A stretch of DNA of 63,985 nucleotides, counting the filler, from Streblomastix strix (Eukaryota): the NCBI GenBank assembly GCA_008636045.1. It is 3 parts of 3 records of this genome, joined end to end, with 100 filler letters (N's around TTAATTAATTAA, not from the genome) between each part and the next. Parts side by side here need not be neighbours in the genome. Positions count along the whole stretch, not along the records: positions 1 to 21,355 come from SNRW01000375.1; 2 more parts are not named here. One strand, 5' to 3'. The position numbers were made by a program, and so were the translations under genes. Of this stretch, positions 1 through 42,905 are shown in pieces. Position 1 is the stretch's first letter; the number at the start of each line of letters is the position of its first letter. The notes under the pieces are model-generated. The model was given only the letters and a program-made list of their open reading frames with translations. It did not search any database and was not told where the DNA came from.

Positions 1-1
1 T

Positions 2-433
2 CATAAAAAATATAACATAAATAAATATAAAGAAGTGGAACGCACCACCGCATAAGTTGAACCAGAAGAGGCTATATAAAAGCTTGCAGAAGAACAACCA
101 AGAAATATATATTTGTCTCATCCAAATTTAGAAGTTCAAAAGTTCGTGATTGATACGATTTGGCGCACCATTACCAAACGATAACGAGGCGATGATTTTG
201 TTTTCTCCTCTGATAACTTCATCAAATTTTGGGCACTAATTACTCAGAACGATGAAGATGATGTTGAAATAGTATTAGAGGAAGCCATTATTTAGCCGCA
301 TACTTGCATACCGAAAAAGCTAAAGAAGAAGGATTTGATTAGAGTATAGGATATTTTAATAAAAAACGTATCCGTTAAAGTTCTTGATAATGTGTTATTT
401 AATTCAATAGAAAAATTATATAGGGTAAATTGA
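2..433 (+). CDS. Hypothetical protein, 5'-truncated at contig edge
   Basis: Open frame with TAR=Gln from contig start to TGA 431-433 (...NSIEKLYRVN*). Confidence 0.65.
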
Positions 434-518
434 CATTTTATCCGTCTCAATGATACACCAGAGACTGAAATAAATGAAAATGATTTTTGAACGATAACAT
501 AAATTTATTTTTATATAA

Positions 519-1565
519 ATGGACTCCCCGATTTTAAGCGATTTATAAAATCTTGATGAGGATGATTTAGCATAAGAACAATAATAATTTCAACTATTGA
601 AATAATAATAGGACGAGTAAATGAAATAAATAAAATAAAAAAATCAATTAATGACAATCATTGATACGCAAACATTAAAATGGTTTTCTTATCTAGCTCA
701 ATTTTTTAAAAAAGCTGTTGGGTTCGTTAATCTTACCGCAAATTAAACTATTAAGGGAATCAAAACCTTTTTATCACCTATTTATGGAACTAAATTTATT
801 TTGACTGGTGGCACAAATAATTAAATTCTACTCGCTAATGGTGAAACATAAGATACAGGGGATTTTTTGCCTAGGGTAGCGCCTCATGCAATGCTTTAAA
901 TGATTATTGAACCCAATGATGATATACGCAACCAAGGCATAAGGATAATGAAAAATAAAGCGAATTGGGATAGTTTCGTATTGACGGTCTGCAACGCTGA
1001 CACCACAAATAAAGATGGAGTATGGAAAATGGGCTCAACGTCATCATAATTTAGGATATAAAAATAAGAAGATGATGCATATGATTATAAGGGGTTGATT
1101 ATTGATTTTGATTGCTCAACATTAAAATTCAACAACGAAGTTATAGCACCATTACCTATCCCACCTATCGAATATGCAATATATTAATCTATAGCCTATG
1201 GTATGTATGAATAATTAATTTGGGGCACTGTAAAATCATAAAAAGATCGAGTTTATATATCTGTGTAAATAACGCATTCAGATCCTAATACATTAACAGA
1301 ATCAGGATATACATTATTTTCTATCGTCAATAATGCCATAAAACCAAAATTTTCTGGCACTACGCATAATATACCCCTTAATGCTCTTATTTTTGTGGTA
1401 AAAGGTATTGGTTATCCAATTTTATGGAATGGTGCCGTTCCCATTGATTGCTTTATTAATCCCAACGGTAACGTAATAATAAATACAATGTGCCAGCTTC
1501 ATTTACCTGATGATTTTTGCGTATAAGTTTGCGATTCATACGCTGTTTATAATTAATCAGCTTGA
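519..1565 (+). CDS. Fibre-like structural protein (348 aa)
   Basis: ATG 519 to TGA 1563-1565 with TAR=Gln; N-terminal coiled coil, then VNLTANQTIKGIKTF...TGGTNNQILLANG motif resembling phage tail-fibre repeats and shared with 4861..6882. Confidence 0.7.
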
Positions 1566-1590
1566 AAAAATAATTTTTATTTTTAAATAA

Positions 1591-1716
1591 ATGGATGGCT
1601 TTATTGAGACAGTTATTTATGCCCTTGATTAATTAAATATAAATTGGCATGCTATATTTAAAACCATTTGGGAGGCAGCAATAAAATACGCATGCGAATC
1701 TAAAATTTGTAGGTGA
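1591..1716 (+). CDS. Small hypothetical protein (41 aa)
   Basis: MDGFIETVIYALDQLNINWHAIFKTIWEAAIKYACESKICR*; preceded by the element's TTTATTTTT...TAAATG motif. Confidence 0.5.
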
Positions 1717-1774
1717 AAATTAGGTGCTTTGCGGCTTTTTTTTGGCAAAAAAAAGTATTTTTATTTTTCTATAA

Positions 1775-1915
1775 ATGATTTTGGAAATAATAACCAGCAT
1801 ATCATTAATGATTATCGCTTGTAATAATTTGCTTGGGTGTATATTAATGATAGCATAAATAAAAATAAATAGTGAAGAAATTAGTGAAGAAGTTAGAAAT
1901 TCAATATATGGCTGA
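1775..1915 (+). CDS. Small hydrophobic protein (46 aa)
   Basis: MILEIITSISLMIIACNNLLGCILMIAQ...; preceded by TTTATTTTTCTATAAATG. Confidence 0.5.
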
Positions 1916-1931
1916 AAAATAATATTTTTAT

Positions 1932-3887
1932 TCATCCATTGCGGACCATTGAGCCACCCATCTCTCCAATCACCTCCAAACTAAGCACGTGCGGGTCGGG
2001 GTTATCATCAAACATTATCCTGACTATAGCATCACAAAGATAATGAGTAATCGGTGTCAGTCCAACCTCTACTGGATCAGGATATGCTCGTGTGCCGCTA
2101 AATTCGGCAAAAACGTTTTATTTTTATGTGGCGTTTATATCAGTGGTTTCGTTAATTTCTCGCACTAAATTACCATTTAAAATAACTTATATATTTGTTC
2201 TAGCACTAATTTTTGAAGAATTATAGCCTCGCATAAATGAATCATCAGTGGCGAGTTTCCACGCAAGCATAAATTTATTAGGGTATAATGTTTTAGTTTC
2301 TTTTGTCCCATGGTATAAAGTAGTTCGATAAAATATATTTGCTTACTTTGGATTGGCTACAGTTGCGCCGTTATATCCATAAAAGTATTTTTAATCGTCT
2401 GTATTAGCATTCTCGAAAGTAAGAGAATGATACAAATCAGAGGGGGCACTAACGACGTCCTAATCAACGAAACAATCAAACATTTAACCACATACGGCTT
2501 AAGTTAATGCTTCGTATGGTTATGGTATCACATGGCGCTAATCGATGACCAAATCGAAGTTGTGGAATAGGACAGGGAAAAACCACGTAGGATATTAAGG
2601 CATGGCGAAAGTCATAAACATAGCCTTTATGTTCGAGAATGACATAATACTTTATAGGCTGCCGCTTATGATACCAAAATTATTAAATGGAAAATTGGAA
2701 GATTACGACCTTATTACTTAAGTGAGGAAATTAATAATTTTTTGGTTTTGGATAAGTTAAATAATCGCGTCTTCATTTTCAATATTGAAACATACATTTT
2801 ATATCTCTAATTTTGTGAATGATGCATCTTTAATTTAGCTAATGGTGTTCTATGGAACTTTAGCATCAACAGCTGCACCTTATATATTAACAATTCGGGC
2901 GCTAAATTTACCATAACTATAAACATCCCCAGCTGTTGCAGCTTTTAATAAATAGATTATATCTGGCTTCTCTGGTGGAATCATTTAATAAGCCAAATGT
3001 CTATTTACTACTGTATCAGTTTTATTTAGCCATACAACCTTCAAATCTTGCAGGAAGTCCTACATCCAGAGCTATAAATATAATGATGCGTAATTTCTTG
3101 TCAAAACAGGAAATGAATTAAATATCGGGTTCAATTAATTTAAATCAAGAACACCACTAAAAACAATATCATCAGGAATTGGATAATACCATGCATTTGT
3201 TGCTGATCGTGTATTTATGTCGCTTAATGGCACGTCTATAAATACCCCACAATGACGCTTTCCCTATATGATGCTTTCTAGAGGTGAAACGCTGACAGAG
3301 TTATTAGTGCATAAATCACTTAATGAATTTGTACAAATTACGGCTTGCTCTCTTGCATAAATTGATGTATCCCATAATTTCGTGCTATCTTTACATATTG
3401 CAAATTAATTAAATGGGCCGCAAGTAGTGGAAAATCCTAACCAAAAACGCAAAACTTCAGTTAGTGCATAACCTTATGCCGCCTATGTCATATTGTCAGT
3501 TTGTTCAGCTGTGATTCCTACTTTTCCATTAAAATTAACAGCTGCACTTGCTGTTCCGTCGGTAGTAACGGCAGCCACAGGTACTTTATTCAATTATATT
3601 GCCAGTGTATTTTTAGGTATTTTTATAGTCCAATTTACCTAACAAGTTTAAACCATTGAACAAGTAGCCGATCCTCTTGCTGCTAGTGGAGCACGGGTAT
3701 ATTTTACTCCTCCAGATGTTAATTGAGTAAGCGGCTGGTCAAAAAATTCTTATTTTGATATGGTGAAAGATTACGGGTGAATGCTCATAGTTTTCAATAC
3801 CTCACCCATCGCCATATAGCCACTAATATAGTCCGAGTGTTGCATTTTCGCCAATTTACTTAAATAATCGCTTGCTGAGAATGACAT
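1932..3887 (-). CDS. Probable major capsid protein, double jelly-roll type (651 aa)
   Basis: Uninterrupted 652-codon frame (MSFSASDYLSKLAK...GGSMVRNG*) with TAR=Gln; beta-strand-like patterning, size and context near the packaging ATPase and fibres; function inferred. Confidence 0.65.
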
Positions 3888-3992
3888 TTTTAAATAAATA
3901 AAAATAAATAAAAAGCACTGGCAAGCATTCATTTTTATATTTTTATTTTAAACTAATTTTTTTTATTATTTATTTTTTTATCTGTCTATAAA

Positions 3993-4571
3993 ATGGCTGA
4001 ATAAATCAATGAAGTAAATTAATTTGTTCCATTAATTGTTGATACTAATTATGAAATATTGATTGAAGAGCCGCATACTATTAGACGCATACGAGATTAA
4101 TTTATACCTAAAATATTGTTTCATAAACCTTCTGGGTATTAACGGATAAAATTAAATGGATAAACACATTAATATCATCGAGTTATTGCAATATAATTTA
4201 TTCCAAATCCTGATGATTTGCCATAAATAGACCATATAAATTAAAACAAAGCAGATAATAGAATTGAAAATTTACGTTGGGCTTCTAGGTCATAAAATTA
4301 AATGAATAAATCAAGTTGCTAAAAAATTGAATATGAATATTTTGATGAGCTACCAGAAGCAACTTAACGGCTTGACTTATATAATGGGCATGATTTAGAA
4401 AATTATTGTTTTGATTAAGAATTCAATGTATATTTCAATAATGGGCTAAAATTTAGAAAATTAATTGTTCGCTTAAATGAAAATAAATATTTATATGTCA
4501 GTGCTTAAACTATTGAGCACAAAACAATTAGAGTTTATTTGGATAGATTACGAAATAATAATTATGAATGA
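3993..4571 (+). CDS. HNH endonuclease (192 aa)
   Basis: YHRVIAIQFIPNPDDLPQIDHINQNKADNRIENLRW matches the HNH homing-endonuclease pattern. Confidence 0.9.
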
Positions 4572-4605
4572 TTAGATGCTTTTTTATATTTTTATTATAA
4601 AGTAA

Positions 4606-4812
4606 ATGGGTTTTTTCTCAAAAATATCAAATTTCGGAAGCAAGATCCTAGGAGGCGTTACGAAAGCAGCCTAATGGATAGCGCCAACTCTCCATAAAGT
4701 ATTAAATACGGTGGCGGGCCCCGTCGGAATGATCCATCCGGGCATTGGGGCAGCGTTGGGCGCAGGTTCAAATCTTGCAGGGGCGGTAGATCGACTGGTA
4801 AATAAACGCTGA
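4606..4812 (+). CDS. Small amphipathic Gly/Ala-rich protein, candidate membrane-lytic virion peptide (68 aa)
   Basis: MGFFSKISNFGSKILGGVTKAAQWIAPTLHKVLNTVAGPVGMIHPGIGAALGAGSNLAGAVDRLVNKR*; GC-rich coding signal and TAAATG start. Confidence 0.7.
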
Positions 4813-4860
4813 CAAATTCATTTATGAATTGATTAATTAATTTATTTTTGTAGAAATAAA

Positions 4861-6882
4861 ATGCAAAGAAATAATCCCAGTCTTTCTTAATAATAGATCC
4901 GCGCAGTCCGTTAATTAATCACTAACGATATAGCTTATTATTTCCAATACTAGAAACGCGGCAGTTGTTCAGGTAGCGGGTAAATATAAAATGAAGATTA
5001 TTAATTATTTATAGATAATGATAACGCATTAGTTTATGCTGCCAATAATTAAATCATTGACGGCCAAGCTTCAGATTTTGCATTAATAATAGCCGCTGAT
5101 GGCTTGCTTACGGTAAAGAATTTAAAGGTTCTAAATTTTGATTTCGTCGCATAAATTAATCAATTAATTAATGAAGTAAATTAATTATAATCTACTGTCG
5201 GCACTATTGACTCTGATATTGTCGGGGTAAAAAATGGTATAATAGCCATTCAGTAAGAGCTTACACGATAATAGCATTTTAGAGGCTATTATTTATTGAA
5301 CACGGATATATAAACACTCCCTGATTCTGCTGATGGTGATTATGCATTCAGTGCCGAGAGTGGGACCGTATGGATGTATTCCGATAATTGGTATAATAGC
5401 GGCGATATTGTCCCTGATTAGGTAACGCCCGCAAGCGATACGGTGCTATTGGTTGATAGTGGCGCAGGTGTTGCAGGCATTAATACAGAATACGCTAGAG
5501 GGGACCATTAGCACCCCCTTTAAGTCAGCGAATAAATACCATCTAGAGATACAGGCACAGGAGCAGCGGGAACATCAACGGCATACTCTAGAGCCGACCA
5601 TTAGCATATTTTGAACACAGACCCAACTGTCGCAAATTTACCCCAAAAAGATACGGGAACAGGAAACAACGGAAATTTAGATTATTATGCTAGGTCAAAT
5701 CATGCGCATCCTCTTAATGTTGATCCAACTGTGGCAAATGTGCCACTGGTAAATGCTACTGCTACCGCTAATGGAACGAGTGATTTTTATAGTAGAAATG
5801 ACCATGTGCATCCTCAATAATTGACATATGACGGAAACATTACCGCAACCAAATTTATTAAGACTGGCGGATTAGCTGCCGAGGTGCTTTGTGCTAATGG
5901 AGATACAATAAACGGAGTGGTTGATTTAGCATCTAATTAAACCATTACAGGAATAAAAACATTTGATTCAATCAAAAAAACAAATGGAACGAATAATGAA
6001 ATTCTAATAGCTGATGGGACAACTAAAAAAGTAGTTTTAGCTTAACATAATTATTATGTATCAACTACAGAAAAATATATTAAATTATGTTAATTTATTC
6101 CATATAATTAATCAAATAATGTTTCGGTTGCATTTTACATTAATTGCAGATAGGCGTTTGGATTAATATAATTCAATTAAAATTATATCACTGATGGAAT
6201 TGGTCAATACACTTATCATTTTGAATCTAACACATTTTTAAAAAGAGCTTATATTTTATATTATGGGTCAGGAACTACAGGCTATGGTGAATTATGGTGT
6301 AATATGAACGCATGGAGTAATAGCGTTGATATACAATTAACGAGATAAAATACGTTTCCAGATTTGATATCAAATGTATTAAATAGTGATATGGTTGATG
6401 CTTTACCTACAGATTATACAACTAGGGTTTAATTATTTTCGAATATGTTTTAATCACCATTTTAAATTAATCCTTAAACTGGAAATTATAGTGAAGGTTT
6501 GCGAATTGCAAATACAACAAATAATTTATGCCTAATATCATTAGGATGTGATCCAAATACAACTTCTGGATACATAGATAAATAATGGTCAATATATAAA
6601 AAGGGTGATGGAACGCTAAATATTGTGCGAACAGCTGACTAAAATACATCTGGTAAAGGTTTATAAATATCTGCTGATGGAAATACATTAAGTTTCAACG
6701 GGTCAGTTATAGCTGGCGTAGGTGCTACGAATGGGGCTAGTAGTGGCTCAGTTTAATATTCAGCAGGAAATCCTATTTTATGGGGTGTAAATAGTGTAGG
6801 CACAGAAGGGGGATTTTATAGTAATGGAACTAATATATGCTGGCGTGCTCGTCCAATAACATTAGGGTCAGTTCCTCCGTGA
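4861..6882 (+). CDS. Tail-fibre-like protein with four HxH repeats (673 aa)
   Basis: 674-codon frame; repeats YARGDHQHP, YSRADHQHI, YARSNHAHP, YSRNDHVHP; NQTITGIKTF and NGTNNEILIADG motifs; includes ORF-track 5611..5820. Confidence 0.8.
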
Positions 6883-6908
6883 AAAGGATAATTTTATTTT
6901 TATATAAA

Positions 6909-7355
6909 ATGGATAAACCAATAAAACAGCTTTTTAATGAACTTGTTAAATGTCATTTTGAAAATGAGGATACGATAAGGGTAGCCATTGATGCACTAAA
7001 TAATTTACTTATCAAAGAAAGTAAAGAATAAATTCATCCACTTTTGAAAGAATTACAGAGGATAAATAAATAATTTCTAAATTTATAAAATAAATTGTAA
7101 AGCATAAAATAATATGTTGATGAGGAAGAATATAAAAACAAACTATTTAATGAACAGGAGAAATATTTTAAAAATAAATACAATTAAATAAAAAAATAAT
7201 TGGATTAAAATAATCAGCCACTATAAATAAAAAAATATATAATTTCCGAAGCTAATGAAACAGAGAAATAAATATACACTGACTTTATAAATGACGCATA
7301 AAATAGTAGCTTAGTCAATTATTACTAGCTTAATTTAACTTCATAAGCAAATTGA
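6909..7355 (+). CDS. Coiled-coil hypothetical protein (148 aa)
   Basis: MDKPIKQLFNELVK...LTSQAN*; TATAAAATG start context. Confidence 0.7.
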
Positions 7356-7563
7356 GATATTGAAAATATTTTATGATTTCATCGGTTTTATCACTTACGG
7401 GCTCAATGAATGTATAATGATTTTTGAATTGCTGATAGGTTTATTTTTCCTCATCAGTTAAAATATTTGGTTCAATTAATATCTCGAATATTTTAAATAT
7501 CTCGTAATCTGTTGCGTTATATTATAGGCCTATGTTTGTTGCTAATTAAAACAATTTATCCAT
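7315..7563 (-). CDS. Hypothetical protein (82 aa)
   Basis: MDKLFQLATNIGLQ...NQASNN*; TTTATTTTTATATAAATG start; 41-bp convergent overlap with 6909..7355. Confidence 0.6.
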
Positions 7564-7582
7564 TTATATAAAAATAAAATTT

Positions 7583-7945
7583 TCATATCCCGCATTATTC
7601 CTCTTCTGTTCTGGTTTCGTCAATATAGCTATTGATTGCTTCGCTGCTGGTTCCGTTGGCCTTCTTCTTATGATTCGATTATATGATTTGTTTTATGCTT
7701 ATTTTCTATTCATTATTATTTATGTCATTAACGAATATATACTTCTCGTTGTATTTCCCATATTATTTTAACTTCCTATAATATGTATAATCGGAATTTT
7801 TGGCTTTGGTTAATTAATAGAATTGCAGATTCCATAAACGGAGTTCATTAAATTATATGCCATTAATGGATTCGATTAGTTGCCCGTCTTTCTTTACTTG
7901 GTCTTGGCTAAGGTAGAATTCGAGTTTTTCAAATTGATTCGTCAT
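7583..7945 (-). CDS. Hypothetical protein (120 aa) resembling the C-terminal half of the HNH protein
   Basis: MTNQFEKLEFYLS...INGIQF...YRKL...YIFVNDINN...CGI*; TATAAAATG start. Confidence 0.65.
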
Positions 7946-7979
7946 TTTATATCAGATAAAAAAATAAAAAATAATAAAA

Positions 7980-8366
7980 TCAAACTTATTATTTATCTTG
8001 GGGCTAATTTAACATTTTCAAATATAATATATAACGGAAATGTTAAGCTAATTCAAAATCTTTATATGCTATTGCTTCGTTCAAAAATGCCTCAATTTAT
8101 TACTCCGTTAATTTATTCCAATGAATTATATTTTGTTTCTTATCCATTTTCCTTCTATAAAAAAATTATATTATATAAATTGTAATATTAAGGAGAACCA
8201 ATACTATATCCAAATACCCCCATAATTATTTGATTAAATTAACTGTATCCGTAAGCTTGTCAGGAATGGATACGGATAAAATAGATATAATAAAGTTGAA
8301 GCCATAAAACATATAATTCATCACTCCCATAATCAAATTCAAAATGTTGCATTAGCTTGGAAACAT
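7980..8366 (-). CDS. Putative membrane protein (128 aa)
   Basis: Two hydrophobic segments (ILNLIMGVMNYMFYGFNFIISILSV; LWGYLDIVLVLLNITIYIIQFFY) followed by RRK. Confidence 0.6.
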
Positions 8367-8382
8367 TTTAAACCTAATAAAA

Positions 8383-9399
8383 ATGACACTTTCAGATTTA
8401 CAAAATATATAATTTGCGAATTAGGATTTATTGAACGAATATAAAACACGGCCACTTACTAAAAATTCGTTGTTCCTCGTCAATGGAAACCATTATATTG
8501 TTGGAGCTGTTGGCTCAGGTAAAACAACGCTTATGTCTAAGCTGATTGTTATGTATAAAAAAATCATTGACCCCTATATTATTTATTTCTCTAATTTTGG
8601 AGCTGATGAAACTATGGCTTTAAATTTGAATAGTAAAGGAATATAAATAGTGAATATAACTTATGGCGAGGCTATGATTTTTTTGCCAGAGTTTGACGAG
8701 GTAAAATATAGCACTAAAGAAGTATATTCTTATTATAAGCTACGGGAATAAAATTTTGATTACAACAGCGATTTTATAAAGCGAATGAAAGAGAAATTAA
8801 TAGAAGCAAACCCAATAAAAAGAGATGAAAAACCATTAGTGTATATCGACCGAATGGCCGAACTATTTTAATCAACAATAATAGAGACCATAAATAAATA
8901 TTCATAACCTTTTGAAATATTGAGGTTCAAAGTTCCACCTATTATTTAGAATGTGAGCTATTAAAAGAAACTGAAAGTCATAGACGATAAATAAACAGCA
9001 GACATAAAAATATTAAAAATACCTATTCTAAAAGATGCCCAGCTATTGAATACTTTAATGCTTTTCGATGATATAGGATCCAACGCTGATATACAACGAT
9101 TTAGTAGTTCATTATCTAAGACCATCACCCATTTAGTCAGTGATTCACGCCATAGTAAAAATACAATATTTTTTATAGCTTAACGACCCAGTTATTTATT
9201 TAAGACAGCCCGCATACTATCGCACGTAATCGTAATTGGAGTTAATATAGGCGAGAGTGATTTAAAATAAGTTTATGAGGAGAATAGCGTATAAGGGTTG
9301 GATTTTGAAGAATTTTTATTATTATACGGCACATTAAATAAATATGAGTTTATGGTTTTAAACAAGTGGCTCGGTCTTTACGAAATACTTAGGAACTGA
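8383..9399 (+). CDS. A32/FtsK-HerA family viral DNA packaging ATPase (338 aa)
   Basis: Walker A GAVGSGKTT, Walker B MLFDD, arginine finger SRH, sensor FFIAQ (Q encoded by TAA 9181-9183); TGA 9397-9399. Confidence 0.92.
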
Positions 9400-9460
9400 G
9401 CCCACCAAAAAAATGGCAGGCTAATTGATGTAGGAAATTAATGAAGAAACCAATGCTTTT

Positions 9461-9646
9461 TGGGTCCGTGCTAAAAAGCTCGGGCTTAGTAATCAATGGT
9501 TTTTCATTTATGGTCTCCTATAGTAGGTCGAGGGTTGAATTGAAAATCGTAAAAAAATGGGTCCGCTCGAAATCGAGCGCACCGAGCAATCGATGGTTTT
9601 TCATTTATGGTCTCCTATAGTAGGTCGAGGGTTGAATTGAAAATCG
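9461..9646. repeat. Two direct repeats (97-bp period) with an identical 54-bp core and a variable palindromic segment
   Basis: atggtttttcatttatggtctcctatagtaggtcgagggttgaattgaaaatcg at 9496-9549 and 9593-9646, each preceded by tgggtccg plus a different hairpin; mirrored at 11710-11895. Confidence 0.9.
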
Positions 9647-9708
9647 ATGTCAAATAAAAATAAATAAACTTTATTTTTTTATTTTTTTACTTTTTATCTA
9701 ACTATAAA

Positions 9709-10518
9709 ATGGAACAAGTCAATACTACCGCCAAAATCTCAAACAACAATATTCGATTCATTGAAGGGTCTTATAATGGTTTAAAATTATTGATTAAAAC
9801 TGATGACCATTATATAAATGCAACGTTATTTTGTGAGTAGTATAATAAAAGATTTAGGAACTTATTAAGAAGTGAATTTTGGGCTAACTATTTAAAGGTC
9901 GAAACGAATGAATTGGAGCCCGCCCAATAAAAGGCATACTCATTAATGTATTAAATCAATAAAGGATTTGATAAGGAATATAAAGGCTATTATATCCATT
10001 AGAATCTAATTAATTATGTTGCTATGTGGGTTGAACCAAAATACGCTGTATATGTTCGTAAGATAATGGACAAAATAAACGAACGAGTTTAAGCAACATA
10101 TGACGAAACAGCAAGCATATAAGCATATGCAGAGGATACGATTAATTTGGTTATTGAAGAATTATAAGTAAAAAATAAATAGCTTTAATTTGAAAAATAA
10201 TAATTATAAAATCGAGTTGTTCCCCTTGATAAAGAAAACGATTATATTTTAGCGCTATAATTAATAGAAGAAAAAGAAGATAAAATTATATATAAGTTCC
10301 ACAGGAAACACAAAAACGGCTTCAAAGAAGATAAGACATACATAAAAATATATGATAATTTACCCGTGGCCGTTAGTGGAAACCATGAGATAATTAAATA
10401 AATTAGAACCAAATTTTAAAATATATCTATTCGTTATATTACTATGGAAGTTCAAAAGGAGGATAATGATAAGTTCTTAAATCAATTGGACGACCTAGTC
10501 AATACCTTATATAAATGA
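9709..10518 (+). CDS. KilA-N domain DNA-binding protein (269 aa)
   Basis: YINATLFCEQYNKRFRNLLRSEFW and KGYYIHQNLINYVAMWVEPKYAVYV match the KilA-N pattern; followed by a coiled coil. Confidence 0.9.
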
Positions 10519-10576
10519 ATTACTTTAATTTATTTTTGTAGGGGGTCGGCTCAAAAATGAGCTAACGGGTATAAAG

Positions 10577-10714
10577 TCAAAAATATCTACACAAAAGAAC
10601 GGCATTACTGGCGTCCATACTAAAGCAATTGTATTAAAAGACTAAAGCTGCTGTCCTTACATATTCGGTCTTAAAGCTAGTGATTATATAATTGACTCCG
10701 GTAATGATTATTGA
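10577..10714 (+). pseudogene. 3' end of a truncated gene, probably a Polinton-type family B DNA polymerase
   Basis: SKISTQKNGITGVHTKAIVLKDQSCCPYIFGLKASDYIIDSGNDY* with no start codon; resembles by eye the K..L....K..I......PY C-terminus of Polinton PolB. Confidence 0.55.
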
Positions 10715-10837
10715 GTGATACCGTCGGGCCATTCTAGCCCAGCCCCTTCAATTTGAAGGGACCCCTAGAATATTTTTGACTTTATACCCGTTAGCTCATT
10801 TTTGAGCCGACCCCCTACAAAAATAAATTAAAGTAAT

Positions 10838-11647
10838 TCATTTATATAAGGTATTGACTAGGTCGTCCAATTGATTTAAGAACTTATCATTATCCTCCTT
10901 TTGAACTTCCATAGTAATATAACGAATAGATATATTTTAAAATTTGGTTCTAATTTATTTAATTATCTCATGGTTTCCACTAACGGCCACGGGTAAATTA
11001 TCATATATTTTTATGTATGTCTTATCTTCTTTGAAGCCGTTTTTGTGTTTCCTGTGGAACTTATATATAATTTTATCTTCTTTTTCTTCTATTAATTATA
11101 GCGCTAAAATATAATCGTTTTCTTTATCAAGGGGAACAACTCGATTTTATAATTATTATTTTTCAAATTAAAGCTATTTATTTTTTACTTATAATTCTTC
11201 AATAACCAAATTAATCGTATCCTCTGCATATGCTTATATGCTTGCTGTTTCGTCATATGTTGCTTAAACTCGTTCGTTTATTTTGTCCATTATCTTACGA
11301 ACATATACAGCGTATTTTGGTTCAACCCACATAGCAACATAATTAATTAGATTCTAATGGATATAATAGCCTTTATATTCCTTATCAAATCCTTTATTGA
11401 TTTAATACATTAATGAGTATGCCTTTTATTGGGCGGGCTCCAATTCATTCGTTTCGACCTTTAAATAGTTAGCCCAAAATTCACTTCTTAATAAGTTCCT
11501 AAATCTTTTATTATACTACTCACAAAATAACGTTGCATTTATATAATGGTCATCAGTTTTAATCAATAATTTTAAACCATTATAAGACCCTTCAATGAAT
11601 CGAATATTGTTGTTTGAGATTTTGGCGGTAGTATTGACTTGTTCCAT
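10838..11647 (-). CDS. KilA-N protein (mirror of 9709..10518)
   Basis: Inverted copy. Confidence 0.88.
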
Positions 11648-11956
11648 TTTATAGTTAGATAAAAAGTAAAAAAATAAAAAAATAAAGTTTATTTATTTTT
11701 ATTTGACATCGATTTTCAATTCAACCCTCGACCTACTATAGGAGACCATAAATGAAAAACCATCGATTGCTCGGTGCGCTCGATTTCGAGCGGACCCATT
11801 TTTTTACGATTTTCAATTCAACCCTCGACCTACTATAGGAGACCATAAATGAAAAACCATTGATTACTAAGCCCGAGCTTTTTAGCACGGACCCAAAAAG
11901 CATTGGTTTCTTCATTAATTTCCTACATCAATTAGCCTGCCATTTTTTTGGTGGGC

Positions 11957-12973
11957 TCAGTTCCTAAGTATTTCGTAAAGACCGAGCCACTTGTTTAAAA
12001 CCATAAACTCATATTTATTTAATGTGCCGTATAATAATAAAAATTCTTCAAAATCCAACCCTTATACGCTATTCTCCTCATAAACTTATTTTAAATCACT
12101 CTCGCCTATATTAACTCCAATTACGATTACGTGCGATAGTATGCGGGCTGTCTTAAATAAATAACTGGGTCGTTAAGCTATAAAAAATATTGTATTTTTA
12201 CTATGGCGTGAATCACTGACTAAATGGGTGATGGTCTTAGATAATGAACTACTAAATCGTTGTATATCAGCGTTGGATCCTATATCATCGAAAAGCATTA
12301 AAGTATTCAATAGCTGGGCATCTTTTAGAATAGGTATTTTTAATATTTTTATGTCTGCTGTTTATTTATCGTCTATGACTTTCAGTTTCTTTTAATAGCT
12401 CACATTCTAAATAATAGGTGGAACTTTGAACCTCAATATTTCAAAAGGTTATGAATATTTATTTATGGTCTCTATTATTGTTGATTAAAATAGTTCGGCC
12501 ATTCGGTCGATATACACTAATGGTTTTTCATCTCTTTTTATTGGGTTTGCTTCTATTAATTTCTCTTTCATTCGCTTTATAAAATCGCTGTTGTAATCAA
12601 AATTTTATTCCCGTAGCTTATAATAAGAATATACTTCTTTAGTGCTATATTTTACCTCGTCAAACTCTGGCAAAAAAATCATAGCCTCGCCATAAGTTAT
12701 ATTCACTATTTATATTCCTTTACTATTCAAATTTAAAGCCATAGTTTCATCAGCTCCAAAATTAGAGAAATAAATAATATAGGGGTCAATGATTTTTTTA
12801 TACATAACAATCAGCTTAGACATAAGCGTTGTTTTACCTGAGCCAACAGCTCCAACAATATAATGGTTTCCATTGACGAGGAACAACGAATTTTTAGTAA
12901 GTGGCCGTGTTTTATATTCGTTCAATAAATCCTAATTCGCAAATTATATATTTTGTAAATCTGAAAGTGTCAT
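11957..12973 (-). CDS. Packaging ATPase (mirror of 8383..9399)
   Basis: Inverted copy; ORF-track 12710..12925 is identical to 8431..8646. Confidence 0.9.
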
Positions 12974-12989
12974 TTTTATTAGGTTTAAA

Positions 12990-13376
12990 ATGTTTCCAAG
13001 CTAATGCAACATTTTGAATTTGATTATGGGAGTGATGAATTATATGTTTTATGGCTTCAACTTTATTATATCTATTTTATCCGTATCCATTCCTGACAAG
13101 CTTACGGATACAGTTAATTTAATCAAATAATTATGGGGGTATTTGGATATAGTATTGGTTCTCCTTAATATTACAATTTATATAATATAATTTTTTTATA
13201 GAAGGAAAATGGATAAGAAACAAAATATAATTCATTGGAATAAATTAACGGAGTAATAAATTGAGGCATTTTTGAACGAAGCAATAGCATATAAAGATTT
13301 TGAATTAGCTTAACATTTCCGTTATATATTATATTTGAAAATGTTAAATTAGCCCCAAGATAAATAATAAGTTTGA
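12990..13376 (+). CDS. Putative membrane protein (mirror of 7980..8366)
   Basis: Inverted copy. Confidence 0.6.
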
Positions 13377-13410
13377 TTTTATTATTTTTTATTTTTTTAT
13401 CTGATATAAA

Positions 13411-13773
13411 ATGACGAATCAATTTGAAAAACTCGAATTCTACCTTAGCCAAGACCAAGTAAAGAAAGACGGGCAACTAATCGAATCCATTAATGGCATA
13501 TAATTTAATGAACTCCGTTTATGGAATCTGCAATTCTATTAATTAACCAAAGCCAAAAATTCCGATTATACATATTATAGGAAGTTAAAATAATATGGGA
13601 AATACAACGAGAAGTATATATTCGTTAATGACATAAATAATAATGAATAGAAAATAAGCATAAAACAAATCATATAATCGAATCATAAGAAGAAGGCCAA
13701 CGGAACCAGCAGCGAAGCAATCAATAGCTATATTGACGAAACCAGAACAGAAGAGGAATAATGCGGGATATGA
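13411..13773 (+). CDS. Hypothetical protein (mirror of 7583..7945)
   Basis: Inverted copy. Confidence 0.65.
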
Positions 13774-13792
13774 AAATTTTATTTTTATATAA

Positions 13793-14041
13793 ATGGATAA
13801 ATTGTTTTAATTAGCAACAAACATAGGCCTATAATATAACGCAACAGATTACGAGATATTTAAAATATTCGAGATATTAATTGAACCAAATATTTTAACT
13901 GATGAGGAAAAATAAACCTATCAGCAATTCAAAAATCATTATACATTCATTGAGCCCGTAAGTGATAAAACCGATGAAATCATAAAATATTTTCAATATC
14001 TCAATTTGCTTATGAAGTTAAATTAAGCTAGTAATAATTGA
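13793..14041 (+). CDS. Hypothetical protein (mirror of 7315..7563)
   Basis: Inverted copy. Confidence 0.6.
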
Positions 14042-14447
14042 CTAAGCTACTATTTTATGCGTCATTTATAAAGTCAGTGTATATTTATTTCTCTGTTTCA
14101 TTAGCTTCGGAAATTATATATTTTTTTATTTATAGTGGCTGATTATTTTAATCCAATTATTTTTTTATTTAATTGTATTTATTTTTAAAATATTTCTCCT
14201 GTTCATTAAATAGTTTGTTTTTATATTCTTCCTCATCAACATATTATTTTATGCTTTACAATTTATTTTATAAATTTAGAAATTATTTATTTATCCTCTG
14301 TAATTCTTTCAAAAGTGGATGAATTTATTCTTTACTTTCTTTGATAAGTAAATTATTTAGTGCATCAATGGCTACCCTTATCGTATCCTCATTTTCAAAA
14401 TGACATTTAACAAGTTCATTAAAAAGCTGTTTTATTGGTTTATCCAT
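14001..14447 (-). CDS. Coiled-coil protein (mirror of 6909..7355)
   Basis: Inverted copy. Confidence 0.68.
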
Positions 14448-14473
14448 TTTATATAAAAATAAAATTATCCTTT

Positions 14474-16495
14474 TCACGGAGGAACTGACCCTAATGTTAT
14501 TGGACGAGCACGCCAGCATATATTAGTTCCATTACTATAAAATCCCCCTTCTGTGCCTACACTATTTACACCCCATAAAATAGGATTTCCTGCTGAATAT
14601 TAAACTGAGCCACTACTAGCCCCATTCGTAGCACCTACGCCAGCTATAACTGACCCGTTGAAACTTAATGTATTTCCATCAGCAGATATTTATAAACCTT
14701 TACCAGATGTATTTTAGTCAGCTGTTCGCACAATATTTAGCGTTCCATCACCCTTTTTATATATTGACCATTATTTATCTATGTATCCAGAAGTTGTATT
14801 TGGATCACATCCTAATGATATTAGGCATAAATTATTTGTTGTATTTGCAATTCGCAAACCTTCACTATAATTTCCAGTTTAAGGATTAATTTAAAATGGT
14901 GATTAAAACATATTCGAAAATAATTAAACCCTAGTTGTATAATCTGTAGGTAAAGCATCAACCATATCACTATTTAATACATTTGATATCAAATCTGGAA
15001 ACGTATTTTATCTCGTTAATTGTATATCAACGCTATTACTCCATGCGTTCATATTACACCATAATTCACCATAGCCTGTAGTTCCTGACCCATAATATAA
15101 AATATAAGCTCTTTTTAAAAATGTGTTAGATTCAAAATGATAAGTGTATTGACCAATTCCATCAGTGATATAATTTTAATTGAATTATATTAATCCAAAC
15201 GCCTATCTGCAATTAATGTAAAATGCAACCGAAACATTATTTGATTAATTATATGGAATAAATTAACATAATTTAATATATTTTTCTGTAGTTGATACAT
15301 AATAATTATGTTAAGCTAAAACTACTTTTTTAGTTGTCCCATCAGCTATTAGAATTTCATTATTCGTTCCATTTGTTTTTTTGATTGAATCAAATGTTTT
15401 TATTCCTGTAATGGTTTAATTAGATGCTAAATCAACCACTCCGTTTATTGTATCTCCATTAGCACAAAGCACCTCGGCAGCTAATCCGCCAGTCTTAATA
15501 AATTTGGTTGCGGTAATGTTTCCGTCATATGTCAATTATTGAGGATGCACATGGTCATTTCTACTATAAAAATCACTCGTTCCATTAGCGGTAGCAGTAG
15601 CATTTACCAGTGGCACATTTGCCACAGTTGGATCAACATTAAGAGGATGCGCATGATTTGACCTAGCATAATAATCTAAATTTCCGTTGTTTCCTGTTCC
15701 CGTATCTTTTTGGGGTAAATTTGCGACAGTTGGGTCTGTGTTCAAAATATGCTAATGGTCGGCTCTAGAGTATGCCGTTGATGTTCCCGCTGCTCCTGTG
15801 CCTGTATCTCTAGATGGTATTTATTCGCTGACTTAAAGGGGGTGCTAATGGTCCCCTCTAGCGTATTCTGTATTAATGCCTGCAACACCTGCGCCACTAT
15901 CAACCAATAGCACCGTATCGCTTGCGGGCGTTACCTAATCAGGGACAATATCGCCGCTATTATACCAATTATCGGAATACATCCATACGGTCCCACTCTC
16001 GGCACTGAATGCATAATCACCATCAGCAGAATCAGGGAGTGTTTATATATCCGTGTTCAATAAATAATAGCCTCTAAAATGCTATTATCGTGTAAGCTCT
16101 TACTGAATGGCTATTATACCATTTTTTACCCCGACAATATCAGAGTCAATAGTGCCGACAGTAGATTATAATTAATTTACTTCATTAATTAATTGATTAA
16201 TTTATGCGACGAAATCAAAATTTAGAACCTTTAAATTCTTTACCGTAAGCAAGCCATCAGCGGCTATTATTAATGCAAAATCTGAAGCTTGGCCGTCAAT
16301 GATTTAATTATTGGCAGCATAAACTAATGCGTTATCATTATCTATAAATAATTAATAATCTTCATTTTATATTTACCCGCTACCTGAACAACTGCCGCGT
16401 TTCTAGTATTGGAAATAATAAGCTATATCGTTAGTGATTAATTAACGGACTGCGCGGATCTATTATTAAGAAAGACTGGGATTATTTCTTTGCAT
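14474..16495 (-). CDS. Tail-fibre-like HxH-repeat protein (mirror of 4861..6882)
   Basis: Inverted copy. Confidence 0.78.
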
Positions 16496-16543
16496 TTTAT
16501 TTCTACAAAAATAAATTAATTAATCAATTCATAAATGAATTTG

Positions 16544-16750
16544 TCAGCGTTTATTTACCAGTCGATCTACCGCCCCTGCAAGATTTGAACCTGCGCCCAA
16601 CGCTGCCCCAATGCCCGGATGGATCATTCCGACGGGGCCCGCCACCGTATTTAATACTTTATGGAGAGTTGGCGCTATCCATTAGGCTGCTTTCGTAACG
16701 CCTCCTAGGATCTTGCTTCCGAAATTTGATATTTTTGAGAAAAAACCCAT
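16544..16750 (-). CDS. Amphipathic peptide (mirror of 4606..4812)
   Basis: Inverted copy. Confidence 0.68.
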
Positions 16751-16784
16751 TTACTTTATAATAAAAATATAAAAAAGCATCTAA

Positions 16785-17363
16785 TCATTCATAATTATTA
16801 TTTCGTAATCTATCCAAATAAACTCTAATTGTTTTGTGCTCAATAGTTTAAGCACTGACATATAAATATTTATTTTCATTTAAGCGAACAATTAATTTTC
16901 TAAATTTTAGCCCATTATTGAAATATACATTGAATTCTTAATCAAAACAATAATTTTCTAAATCATGCCCATTATATAAGTCAAGCCGTTAAGTTGCTTC
17001 TGGTAGCTCATCAAAATATTCATATTCAATTTTTTAGCAACTTGATTTATTCATTTAATTTTATGACCTAGAAGCCCAACGTAAATTTTCAATTCTATTA
17101 TCTGCTTTGTTTTAATTTATATGGTCTATTTATGGCAAATCATCAGGATTTGGAATAAATTATATTGCAATAACTCGATGATATTAATGTGTTTATCCAT
17201 TTAATTTTATCCGTTAATACCCAGAAGGTTTATGAAACAATATTTTAGGTATAAATTAATCTCGTATGCGTCTAATAGTATGCGGCTCTTCAATCAATAT
17301 TTCATAATTAGTATCAACAATTAATGGAACAAATTAATTTACTTCATTGATTTATTCAGCCAT
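16785..17363 (-). CDS. HNH endonuclease (mirror of 3993..4571)
   Basis: Inverted copy. Confidence 0.88.
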
Positions 17364-17468
17364 TTTATAGACAGATAAAAAAATAAATAATAAAAAAAAT
17401 TAGTTTAAAATAAAAATATAAAAATGAATGCTTGCCAGTGCTTTTTATTTATTTTTATTTATTTAAAA

Positions 17469-19424
17469 ATGTCATTCTCAGCAAGCGATTATTTAAGTAA
17501 ATTGGCGAAAATGCAACACTCGGACTATATTAGTGGCTATATGGCGATGGGTGAGGTATTGAAAACTATGAGCATTCACCCGTAATCTTTCACCATATCA
17601 AAATAAGAATTTTTTGACCAGCCGCTTACTCAATTAACATCTGGAGGAGTAAAATATACCCGTGCTCCACTAGCAGCAAGAGGATCGGCTACTTGTTCAA
17701 TGGTTTAAACTTGTTAGGTAAATTGGACTATAAAAATACCTAAAAATACACTGGCAATATAATTGAATAAAGTACCTGTGGCTGCCGTTACTACCGACGG
17801 AACAGCAAGTGCAGCTGTTAATTTTAATGGAAAAGTAGGAATCACAGCTGAACAAACTGACAATATGACATAGGCGGCATAAGGTTATGCACTAACTGAA
17901 GTTTTGCGTTTTTGGTTAGGATTTTCCACTACTTGCGGCCCATTTAATTAATTTGCAATATGTAAAGATAGCACGAAATTATGGGATACATCAATTTATG
18001 CAAGAGAGCAAGCCGTAATTTGTACAAATTCATTAAGTGATTTATGCACTAATAACTCTGTCAGCGTTTCACCTCTAGAAAGCATCATATAGGGAAAGCG
18101 TCATTGTGGGGTATTTATAGACGTGCCATTAAGCGACATAAATACACGATCAGCAACAAATGCATGGTATTATCCAATTCCTGATGATATTGTTTTTAGT
18201 GGTGTTCTTGATTTAAATTAATTGAACCCGATATTTAATTCATTTCCTGTTTTGACAAGAAATTACGCATCATTATATTTATAGCTCTGGATGTAGGACT
18301 TCCTGCAAGATTTGAAGGTTGTATGGCTAAATAAAACTGATACAGTAGTAAATAGACATTTGGCTTATTAAATGATTCCACCAGAGAAGCCAGATATAAT
18401 CTATTTATTAAAAGCTGCAACAGCTGGGGATGTTTATAGTTATGGTAAATTTAGCGCCCGAATTGTTAATATATAAGGTGCAGCTGTTGATGCTAAAGTT
18501 CCATAGAACACCATTAGCTAAATTAAAGATGCATCATTCACAAAATTAGAGATATAAAATGTATGTTTCAATATTGAAAATGAAGACGCGATTATTTAAC
18601 TTATCCAAAACCAAAAAATTATTAATTTCCTCACTTAAGTAATAAGGTCGTAATCTTCCAATTTTCCATTTAATAATTTTGGTATCATAAGCGGCAGCCT
18701 ATAAAGTATTATGTCATTCTCGAACATAAAGGCTATGTTTATGACTTTCGCCATGCCTTAATATCCTACGTGGTTTTTCCCTGTCCTATTCCACAACTTC
18801 GATTTGGTCATCGATTAGCGCCATGTGATACCATAACCATACGAAGCATTAACTTAAGCCGTATGTGGTTAAATGTTTGATTGTTTCGTTGATTAGGACG
18901 TCGTTAGTGCCCCCTCTGATTTGTATCATTCTCTTACTTTCGAGAATGCTAATACAGACGATTAAAAATACTTTTATGGATATAACGGCGCAACTGTAGC
19001 CAATCCAAAGTAAGCAAATATATTTTATCGAACTACTTTATACCATGGGACAAAAGAAACTAAAACATTATACCCTAATAAATTTATGCTTGCGTGGAAA
19101 CTCGCCACTGATGATTCATTTATGCGAGGCTATAATTCTTCAAAAATTAGTGCTAGAACAAATATATAAGTTATTTTAAATGGTAATTTAGTGCGAGAAA
19201 TTAACGAAACCACTGATATAAACGCCACATAAAAATAAAACGTTTTTGCCGAATTTAGCGGCACACGAGCATATCCTGATCCAGTAGAGGTTGGACTGAC
19301 ACCGATTACTCATTATCTTTGTGATGCTATAGTCAGGATAATGTTTGATGATAACCCCGACCCGCACGTGCTTAGTTTGGAGGTGATTGGAGAGATGGGT
19401 GGCTCAATGGTCCGCAATGGATGA
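17469..19424 (+). CDS. Probable major capsid protein (mirror of 1932..3887)
   Basis: ATG 17469 to TGA 19422-19424, 652 codons. Confidence 0.65.
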
Positions 19425-19440
19425 ATAAAAATATTATTTT

Positions 19441-19581
19441 TCAGCCATATATTGAATTTCTAACTTCTTCACTAATTTCTTCACTATTTATTTTTATTTA
19501 TGCTATCATTAATATACACCCAAGCAAATTATTACAAGCGATAATCATTAATGATATGCTGGTTATTATTTCCAAAATCAT
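19441..19581 (-). CDS. Small hydrophobic protein (mirror of 1775..1915)
   Basis: Inverted copy. Confidence 0.5.
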
Positions 19582-19639
19582 TTATAGAAAAATAAAAATA
19601 CTTTTTTTTGCCAAAAAAAAGCCGCAAAGCACCTAATTT

Positions 19640-19765
19640 TCACCTACAAATTTTAGATTCGCATGCGTATTTTATTGCTGCCTCCCAAATGGTTTTAAAT
19701 ATAGCATGCCAATTTATATTTAATTAATCAAGGGCATAAATAACTGTCTCAATAAAGCCATCCAT
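19640..19765 (-). CDS. Small hypothetical protein (mirror of 1591..1716)
   Basis: Inverted copy. Confidence 0.5.
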
Positions 19766-19790
19766 TTATTTAAAAATAAAAATTATTTTT

Positions 19791-20837
19791 TCAAGCTGAT
19801 TAATTATAAACAGCGTATGAATCGCAAACTTATACGCAAAAATCATCAGGTAAATGAAGCTGGCACATTGTATTTATTATTACGTTACCGTTGGGATTAA
19901 TAAAGCAATCAATGGGAACGGCACCATTCCATAAAATTGGATAACCAATACCTTTTACCACAAAAATAAGAGCATTAAGGGGTATATTATGCGTAGTGCC
20001 AGAAAATTTTGGTTTTATGGCATTATTGACGATAGAAAATAATGTATATCCTGATTCTGTTAATGTATTAGGATCTGAATGCGTTATTTACACAGATATA
20101 TAAACTCGATCTTTTTATGATTTTACAGTGCCCCAAATTAATTATTCATACATACCATAGGCTATAGATTAATATATTGCATATTCGATAGGTGGGATAG
20201 GTAATGGTGCTATAACTTCGTTGTTGAATTTTAATGTTGAGCAATCAAAATCAATAATCAACCCCTTATAATCATATGCATCATCTTCTTATTTTTATAT
20301 CCTAAATTATGATGACGTTGAGCCCATTTTCCATACTCCATCTTTATTTGTGGTGTCAGCGTTGCAGACCGTCAATACGAAACTATCCCAATTCGCTTTA
20401 TTTTTCATTATCCTTATGCCTTGGTTGCGTATATCATCATTGGGTTCAATAATCATTTAAAGCATTGCATGAGGCGCTACCCTAGGCAAAAAATCCCCTG
20501 TATCTTATGTTTCACCATTAGCGAGTAGAATTTAATTATTTGTGCCACCAGTCAAAATAAATTTAGTTCCATAAATAGGTGATAAAAAGGTTTTGATTCC
20601 CTTAATAGTTTAATTTGCGGTAAGATTAACGAACCCAACAGCTTTTTTAAAAAATTGAGCTAGATAAGAAAACCATTTTAATGTTTGCGTATCAATGATT
20701 GTCATTAATTGATTTTTTTATTTTATTTATTTCATTTACTCGTCCTATTATTATTTCAATAGTTGAAATTATTATTGTTCTTATGCTAAATCATCCTCAT
20801 CAAGATTTTATAAATCGCTTAAAATCGGGGAGTCCAT
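19791..20837 (-). CDS. Fibre-like protein (mirror of 519..1565)
   Basis: Inverted copy. Confidence 0.68.
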
Positions 20838-20922
20838 TTATATAAAAATAAATTTATGTTATCGTTCAAAAATCATTTTCATTTATTTCAGTCTCTGGTG
20901 TATCATTGAGACGGATAAAATG

Positions 20923-21354
20923 TCAATTTACCCTATATAATTTTTCTATTGAATTAAATAACACATTATCAAGAACTTTAACGGATACGTTTTTTATTAA
21001 AATATCCTATACTCTAATCAAATCCTTCTTCTTTAGCTTTTTCGGTATGCAAGTATGCGGCTAAATAATGGCTTCCTCTAATACTATTTCAACATCATCT
21101 TCATCGTTCTGAGTAATTAGTGCCCAAAATTTGATGAAGTTATCAGAGGAGAAAACAAAATCATCGCCTCGTTATCGTTTGGTAATGGTGCGCCAAATCG
21201 TATCAATCACGAACTTTTGAACTTCTAAATTTGGATGAGACAAATATATATTTCTTGGTTGTTCTTCTGCAAGCTTTTATATAGCCTCTTCTGGTTCAAC
21301 TTATGCGGTGGTGCGTTCCACTTCTTTATATTTATTTATGTTATATTTTTTATG
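20923..21354 (-). CDS. Truncated hypothetical protein (mirror of 2..433)
   Basis: Inverted copy. Confidence 0.62.
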
Positions 21355-21355
21355 A

Positions 21356-21455
21356 NNNNNNNNNNNNNNNNNNNNNNNNNNNNNNNNNNNNNNNNNNNNT
21401 TAATTAATTAANNNNNNNNNNNNNNNNNNNNNNNNNNNNNNNNNNNNNNNNNNNN
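21356..21455. other. Artificial contig linker
   Basis: 100 bp of Ns containing TTAATTAATTAA. Confidence 0.98.
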
Positions 21456-24690: not shown

Positions 24691-24712
24691 TAAACAATGG
24701 GGATTTATTATT

Positions 24713-25117
24713 AGTAGTTAATGAAAAAGGACGATGCCCGAGCATTGCCTAAATTCTATTCGTTTGTGAGGTTCAGAAATCAAATCAATTATTTTTATCA
24801 TTAACGCATATCATAAATTATATCAATTATTTTTATCATAAATGTATATCATAAATCATATCAATTATATATTTTTATTAACATATATCATAAATCAAAT
24901 CAATTATTTTTCATTAATAATGATATTCATAAATGTTATTGTTTATTACTTTATGTGTATTTCTTTATTAACATCAAATTTATTCTTTGATTTTCGGTTC
25001 TGGATAATCTGTTCGTTTTTCATATGTCAGCAATTCGTAATATCACTGGTTATTTCTGATGTGGACAAATCACTGCGTTTATCAATGTGAGGGCATCGTC
25101 CTTTTTCATTAACTACT
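24713..25117. mobile_element. 405-bp non-autonomous TIR element with Polinton/Maverick-type ends
   Basis: 27-bp perfect TIR AGTAGTTAATGAAAAAGGACGATGCCC (24713-24739 and 25091-25117); ATTATT on both flanks (24707-24712, 25118-25123); internal short tandem repeats. Confidence 0.85.
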
Positions 25118-42805: not shown

Positions 42806-42905
42806 NNNNNNNNNNNNNNNNNNNNNNNNNNNNNNNNNNNNNNNNNNNNTTAATTAATTAANNNNNNNNNNNNNNNNNNNNNNNNNNNNNNNNNNNNNNN
42901 NNNNN
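42806..42905. other. Artificial contig linker
   Basis: 100 bp of Ns containing TTAATTAATTAA. Confidence 0.98.

Follow-up and report, generated by a model that had tools for sequence, protein, structure and literature searches.

What kind of element occupies the first 10.8 kb of this stretch of Streblomastix strix DNA (assembly GCA_008636045.1), where long genes open up only when TAA and TAG are read as glutamine? The stretch, hereafter the window, is 63,985 nt long and consists of three contigs, with N spacers between them at 21356-21455 and 42806-42905. The element lies on contig 1, and contigs 2 and 3 contain genes of host type along with transposon remnants. A preliminary description had called it a polinton-like virus (PLV) carrying an intact-looking virion module. 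Our analysis favors, at a probability of roughly 65%, a small virus with a double-jelly-roll (DJR) capsid, written with TAA/TAG as Gln, which is one of many copies integrated in the termite-gut oxymonad S. strix or a close relative and belongs to a second capsid lineage in that host. The fragment under study, which is well preserved, is one arm of a fold-back in contig 1 together with its 183-nt centre, 10.8 kb in total and cut at position 1, and the two genes on which the argument turns are:

1932..3887, minus strand: major capsid protein, 651 aa, double jelly roll, assigned from its predicted fold and homologues; 32 of 40 Gln codons are TAA/TAG
8383..9399, plus strand: A32/FtsK-type genome-packaging ATPase, 338 aa; PF04665 (Pox_A32) at E = 2.5e-05, above the gathering score

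The capsid candidate matched no family in Pfam, PHROGs or NCBIfam, and its fold was one of the points on which the preliminary description had allowed itself to be refuted. A first model, based on 40 closely related S. strix sequences, scored badly (predicted local distance difference test, pLDDT, 50.7; Foldseek E no better than 1.6e-03; Z at most 4.5). Adding 15 distant relatives to the alignment gave a second model, which replaced it (pLDDT 78.8; predicted template modeling score, pTM, 0.84). With the second model, Foldseek returned 227 PDB matches at E ≤ 0.001 (best 1.9e-12), and all 24 rows listed were DJR capsids, among them those of iridovirus, PBCV-1, EhV, mavirus, Sputnik and faustovirus. 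VIA-align superposed 350 residues on the PBCV-1 capsid (Z 15.6; root-mean-square deviation 4.3), gave Z 15.3 for faustovirus, and placed DJR proteins in 50 of 50 listed rows; a structure search of BFVD was concordant. On its modeled fold, then, the 651-aa protein is a DJR major capsid protein, as had been claimed, and UniRef gives the name 'Major capsid protein' to 12 of 120 listed matches. Because identity is 5-11% throughout the structural matches, the fold gives no placement within any one group.

The proposed A32-type ATPase was borne out as well. Walker A, Walker B, R256 and Q267 are invariant among six aligned ATPases, two of which come from loci that use TAA/TAG as stops, and the TAA at 9181-9183 specifies the sensor residue Gln267, which is Gln in all six. 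The protein had no sequence match in PDB, and no grouping with cellular or bacterial ATPases emerged, no tree having been built. Judged by sequence, the product of this gene is an A32-type packaging ATPase.

Retranslation with table 6 recovered 14 genes that fill 9,523 of the 10,586 nt (90%) of positions 1-10586, whereas table 11 yielded only seven open reading frames (ORFs) of ≥60 aa overlapping 1-12000, the longest of 101 aa. Every gene contains in-frame TAA/TAG (1-38 per gene; the longest table-11 piece of the capsid gene is 61 aa), and 10 of the 13 gene junctions are spaced by 16-105 nt, while of the other three, one is a 41-nt overlap and two are wider gaps (235 and 309 nt). Long ORFs were far rarer in 200 Markov simulations than in the sequence itself: six of ≥300 aa were seen against a mean of 1.4, and two of ≥600 aa where only 4 of 200 simulations gave any. 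Short ORFs were no commoner than chance (68 of ≥50 aa versus a mean of 84.6). Since short ORFs are uninformative with a single stop codon, those of 41, 55, 82, 120 and 148 aa are called only from packing and a shared upstream motif, and that of 46 aa from packing, the motif and hydropathy. The claim that the ORFs lack premature TGA is true in part by construction, since TGA was used to define them.

Comparison with ten distant capsid relatives points the same way. Gln stands opposite capsid TAA/TAG in 55 of 289 cells (19%), much as it does opposite CAA/CAG (13/65, 20%), and in 4% of cells elsewhere; the code of those ten database proteins is judged from loci at 49-63% identity to three of them, in which TAA/TAG serve as stops. 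Across the virus, 172 of 221 Gln codons (78%) are TAA/TAG, compared with 539/785 in six long host ORFs that may include intron sequence. With 32 TAA/TAG codons in the capsid gene, no expression is possible in a standard-code host. Adaptation to the host code, asserted at the outset, is thus upheld by both the long ORFs and the aligned Gln positions. The accompanying statement that standard ORF calling misses such elements did not hold, as GenBank contains the homologues as S. strix genes and host-code endogenous viral elements (EVEs) of S. strix are published.

Most gene starts between 519 and 9709 are preceded by a T-rich tract ending in [AT]AAATG, which the ATPase gene lacks; similar leaders precede some genes of environmental relatives (loci L017, L012 and L028, below). 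The count of this motif is marginal (nine matches, all on listed gene starts, against a simulated mean of 3.4 and maximum of 9), and the small genes were chosen partly by it. We presume a resemblance to the poxvirus late TAAATG.

Relatives, host and copies

A capsid profile search of 1.84 billion representatives gave 215 matches, including ten long relatives at 21-29% identity, three of them in clusters on 20-22 kb contigs. A motif scan found 28 metagenome loci, of which five were true relatives and 23 chance matches. No capsid relative appeared in IMG/VR scans, and a scan of bacterial and archaeal genomes gave 12 loci, none related. The relatives lie on contigs of 20.0-23.0 kb, and three of them (L012, L020 and L028) have capsid, ATPase and amphipathic peptide in common with the window. 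Among the relatives' long ORFs, 21 of 34 end in TAA/TAG, whereas all 14 window genes end in TGA. One gene core occurs in standard-code environmental viruses and in a recoded element.

L020 additionally encodes a 942-aa protein that, from its sequence matches, is a putative primase-helicase (DUF5906, E = 7.4e-09; weak matches to P4 primase and to a solved phage primase). PolB and integrase families were absent from the 14 window genes and from 22 proteins of L017, L020 and L028, whose loci were scanned in part (17,666/22,996, 13,106/21,833 and 12,525/13,454 nt, respectively). Since the replication gene of L020, the only one visible among the relatives, is of primase-helicase type, PolB is not to be expected by default with this capsid and ATPase, contrary to the preliminary description.

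The relatives showed further features of their own. Proteins of 1326 aa (L017:4582-8562) and 701 aa (L028:7338-9443) are alike only near the C-terminus (E = 5e-07); from their motifs we take both to be penton-like, and candidate pentons with very large inserts. The amphipathic peptide gene is present in two tandem copies at L020:16716-17196, and three tandem, seemingly paralogous genes of 201-222 aa lie at L028:5380-7293. Tandem repeats at or near contig ends (11 nt at L017:13064-13106; 73 nt at L028:64-363; 59 nt at L020:1218-1335) can be likened to an 89-nt pair in the window.

Close homologues of the element all come from one host. All 120 listed capsid matches (of 187) are from S. strix, at 49-83% identity and on contigs of up to 33 kb, as are 39 of 39 ATPase matches, and 17 of the 120 capsids are full length with few gaps. 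In a 23-row capsid tree, midpoint-rooted with no outside references, the window capsid and 11 S. strix capsids formed a 100/100 clade on a long branch. Sister-copy differences, of which 40 of 738 were shown, fell at third codon positions in 26 of 39 codon assignments (capsid, 6/6), a bias that fits selection on the proteins.

Part of the virus region was present in five sequencing runs, four labelled termite gut metagenome. Read depth was compared with that of host contigs, as had been suggested: in run X1 the exact capsid piece had a depth of 15.5, within the 7-46 of eight near-exact host pieces, and contigs ≥90% identical to the virus region summed to 1,300-30,600 in 24 of 30 bins, figures that are suggestive only because summed contig depth is not copy number and X1 may be the source sample. 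Runs X3 and X4, from two other studies, contained relatives in 30/30 and 29/30 bins. Such depths are consistent with a single copy alongside a very large number of diverged sisters, and the genome of S. strix or a close relative probably carries many such integrated elements, this one included.

Competing explanations

How far do these results establish a second lineage of integrated viruses? An earlier survey read S. strix EVEs with the host's own table, collected 820 capsid hits in a single cluster (MMPC_40) seeded by a Trichomonas DUF4106 capsid, estimated the viral share at 10.8% of the assembly, used PSI-BLAST for this species and described misassembly (Bellas et al., 2023; PMC10120064). 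Neither DUF4106 nor any other capsid Pfam matched any of 36 members of the present family at E ≤ 1, in a search run with no positive control; eight family motifs and four locus tags were absent from the portion of the survey's supplement examined (PMC10120064), and the open-access literature yielded no paper on this capsid family. We conclude that a second, undescribed capsid lineage probably exists beside the reported one.

Besides the limits of the depth data, several points weigh against our reading. Gln was found at only 2 of 19 cells opposite ATPase TAA/TAG positions, a thin test. The DUF4106 result has no positive control among reported S. strix capsids, and the capsid matches listed are 120 of 187. 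A word-limited search with the L020 primase-helicase gave two matches, neither in S. strix. Most of the listed S. strix capsids are partial or broken, which fits decay but also misassembly of the kind that the survey describes (PMC10120064). In the ESM Atlas the clusters closest to a standard-code relative come from Parabasalia (583 aa, score 0.98) and from Preaxostyla (547 aa, TM 0.61/0.72), so that the family has at least a distant kinship with the reported Metamonada group; the Preaxostyla cluster could belong to either capsid family. Lastly, neither a virus-host junction nor a terminal inverted repeat (TIR), integrase, replicase or penton (minor capsid protein) was identified for the window element. 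Integration is for that reason something we infer only, and the virion module described as intact-looking is confirmed for its capsid and ATPase and lacks those other parts in the window.

Several of these points feed the alternative that survives best, although we consider it unlikely: that the element is a divergent Metamonada-group Maverick-Polinton already among the 820 published hits, with PolB and integrase in its missing part. Its host and code are identical to those of the published EVEs (PMC10120064), the Atlas places the family beside Parabasalia and Preaxostyla clusters, and PSI-BLAST could have drawn in remote capsid families. It is opposed by the absence of DUF4106 matches (0/36), by the length of full-length family capsids (~650 aa versus 562 aa for the published representative), by the assignment of all 820 hits to one cluster, by the four visible S. 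strix representatives of the survey (PMC10120064), none of which is among the 120 listed matches, and by the putative primase-helicase of L020.

A second alternative concerns only the layout of contig 1, a fold-back that the preliminary description had not mentioned, and is compatible with any of the other readings. The two features in question are:

10587..10769, no strand: unique fold-back centre, 183 nt, with two small hairpins near its right end
10770..21355, minus strand: exact reverse-complement copy of 1-10586, at 100.000% identity over 10,586 nt; sister copies differ at 738 listed places

That the fold-back is real, marking a genome end closed by a hairpin or a replication dimer joined tail to tail, seems to us doubtful, and somewhat more so than the first alternative. 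An exact X1 piece spans 10642-10797 and thus crosses the junction at a depth of 210, above host depth, and the centre contains small hairpins. This piece, however, extends only 28 nt beyond the junction (the bar of the tool is 31 nt), other joints fold elsewhere (10346/10769 in X1 and 10519/10695 in run X2), the centre is not a near-perfect hairpin, and a short real inverted repeat would account for the fold-back too. Genome amplification and graph assembly are known to yield perfect fold-backs. Because the arms are perfectly identical while sisters differ at hundreds of sites, we regard them as one sequence read twice. Amplification or assembly is the likely origin of the mirror half, with a short real inverted repeat as its possible seed; a hairpin end is less likely, and 10770-21355 is likely not a second element. 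The two hairpins, at 10715-10769, stand with a closing CTAG at the fold-back junction, possibly a genome end.

A free, non-integrating virus population in or on protist cells, assembled along with the host, is improbable. The window has no host junction, integrase is absent from the 14 window genes and the relatives' 22 proteins, the third-position bias fits active viruses, and relatives occur on stand-alone 20-23 kb contigs. Set against this are the host-like depth of the exact capsid piece in X1 and homologues that are 49-83% identical, mostly partial or broken, and found on S. strix contigs reaching 33 kb. An origin from a bacterial phage or symbiont is rejected on code, fold and the host of the homologues, and a fragment of a nucleocytoplasmic large DNA virus (NCLDV) on the gene set and the size of the relatives.

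For an integrated, recoded DJR virus, the proposed life cycle would run as follows. Host enzymes would transcribe the intron-free genes from the T-rich leader ending in AAATG, and host ribosomes would translate TAA/TAG as Gln and stop at TGA only. Capsid trimers, with a penton encoded outside the fragment, would form an icosahedral shell that the ATPase fills; attachment to the cell would fall to the fibres, and the basic peptide would open a membrane during entry. By analogy with L020, a genome of ~20-23 kb may be copied by a primase-helicase rather than PolB.

A wider proposal, which in our estimate falls a little short of even odds, is an undescribed family-level lineage of ~20-23 kb DJR viruses of anaerobic protists, with a primase-helicase and without PolB or a recognisable integrase, of which one branch is wholly recoded (TGA as the only stop; TAA/TAG for 78% of Gln) and has colonised the S. 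strix genome in hundreds of copies beside the known Maverick family. If it is true, having both standard-code and recoded viruses in one lineage would make it possible to follow a virus across the genetic-code barrier, a natural test of viral adaptation to a reassigned code. Should the lineage prove separate, viruses would make up more of the assembly than the published ~11%, a figure derived from one capsid cluster, and a named host would be known for a capsid family that is missing from Pfam, PHROGs and the IMG/VR scans.

Other genes and neighboring contigs

The remaining features of the fragment are:

2..433, plus strand: 5'-truncated ORF, 143 aa, cut by the contig end; no family
519..1565, plus strand: putative short fibre, 348 aa, in part a paralogue of the 673-aa protein; no significant library match
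1591..1716, plus strand: 41-aa ORF with upstream motif, not transmembrane (maximum KD19 0.66)
1775..1915, plus strand: predicted single-pass membrane protein, 46 aa, with upstream motif (maximum KD19 2.21)
3993..4571, plus strand: HNH endonuclease, 192 aa (PF13392, E = 2.9e-12); homologue in L020 (E = 1.6e-06)
4606..4812, plus strand: basic amphipathic peptide starting with MG, 68 aa, net charge +6, predicted membrane-lytic; homologues in relatives
4861..6882, plus strand: putative long fibre, 673 aa, with four Y[AS]RxDHxH-type repeats and a QTITGIKTF motif
6909..7355, plus strand: helical ORF, 148 aa, with upstream motif; sub-threshold matches only
7315..7563, minus strand: 82-aa ORF overlapping the 148-aa gene by 41 nt
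7583..7945, minus strand: 120-aa ORF with upstream motif
7980..8147, minus strand: 55-aa ORF, start chosen by upstream motif
9461..9646, no strand: two 89-nt direct repeats, 85% alike, in the 309-nt non-coding gap; possible origin or terminal-repeat element
9709..10518, plus strand: KilA-N domain protein, 269 aa (PF04383, E = 2e-19), in a region exactly common to many copies

The two fibre candidates share a QTIxGIKTF / TGG..ILLANG module (E = 2e-07), and the motifs of the longer one lie at residues 211, 242, 276, 310 and 359. Searches of Pfam, PHROGs, NCBIfam, PDB and 50,697 phage records gave no significant match for either. Matches to phage tail families do exist for fibres of relatives (Gp10_C in L020, E = 1.2e-11; phrog_7911 in L028, E = 3.2e-05), although these fibres showed no significant match to the two window candidates. 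The label 'phage-style' thus draws on motifs and on the fibres of relatives, since those of the window have no significant library match.

The 68-aa peptide has homologues in L020 (two), L028 and L012 (E = 3e-10 to 5e-05), which supports a conserved amphipathic peptide where the preliminary description had placed a lytic one; its lytic role found no library support, with no significant Pfam or PDB match (Cecropin in one member, E = 0.034). We take the peptide to resemble adenovirus protein VI, and it is on this analogy that it is predicted to be membrane-lytic. Several membrane proteins had also been announced, and a transmembrane-grade segment was found in one ORF only, that of 46 aa.

The HNH gene is likely a sporadic insertion, its bins having a summed depth of 122-181 in X1 versus >1,300 in the bins on either side. 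Exact KilA-N pieces in X1 reached depths of 827 and 952, ~20-130x single host pieces, and the region 9709-10518 may lie in a terminal repeat or be independently mobile. In the truncated 143-aa ORF, five of seven listed sister-copy differences are at third codon positions. GGGTC...GCTC/GAGC motifs recur at 9461, 9558 and 10544, and Rfam had no match within 9300-10900.

On the other contigs, the spacer TTAATTAATTAA does not stop table-6 frames, so the ORFs 21055-21531 and 42512-43537, which cross the contig joins, are artefacts. Two ORFs at 60614-63316 encode portions of a hAT transposase (DUF4371, E = 3.1e-06; Dimer_Tnp_hAT, E = 0.0019) and form an interrupted transposon, and 22882-23358 holds a reverse-transcriptase fragment (RVT_1, E = 6e-04). 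An intron-bearing kinase gene, which from its motifs we assume to be of casein/tau-tubulin kinase type, forms an inverted duplicate at 42906-46376 and 56239-59750 (88% identical). A high-copy host repeat lies at ~24700-25130 (bin depth 5,808 in X1 and 146 in X3), and 46736-47295 is a degenerate coding tandem repeat with a 51-nt unit.

Comparison with known systems

Host-code EVEs in S. strix (PMC10120064) and phage-like fibres in PLVs (PMC12220804) are already known, and what may be new is the lineage. The element resembles the Metamonada-group EVEs of MMPC_40 (PMC10120064) in its host species as judged by homology, its TAA/TAG code, its DJR capsid and its probable hundreds of copies. It differs from them in a capsid of ~650 rather than 562 aa and in the lack of a DUF4106 match, and its nearest outside relatives are metagenomic viruses at 21-29% identity, not Trichomonas Mavericks.

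Virophages (Maveriviricetes: mavirus and Sputnik) are alike in fold (Z 12-13) and in the genome size of the relatives, but the capsid fold is no closer to theirs than to NCLDV capsids, structural-alignment identity is 7-10%, no protease was seen, and no Sputnik/V20 capsid Pfam matched any of 36 members. By capsid family the element would therefore fall outside the virophages.

Mavericks/Polintons are defined by PolB, an rve-integrase and TIRs (PMC12220804). With these in the strict sense the element shares the module of capsid and A32 ATPase and its multicopy state in a protist genome, whereas PolB, rve-integrase and TIRs were unseen in the window and in the examined parts of relatives; a Polinton proper is not shown.

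PLVs come closest. Those with primase-helicase replicases, HNH genes and phage-like fibres form a 14-40 kb size class (PMC12220804), and examples such as the cryptophyte PLVs resemble the element in DJR capsid, ATPase, HNH and putative fibre genes; the 20.0-23.0 kb contigs of its relatives lie within that size class, and a replicase like their AEP/SF3-type (archaeo-eukaryotic primase/superfamily 3 helicase) enzyme is found in a relative of the window element. The differences are a capsid with no sequence match in library families or IMG/VR, the recoding, and no integrase or TIR shown. In its DJR capsid and A32 ATPase, which mark PLVs in the broad sense, the element works like a PLV.

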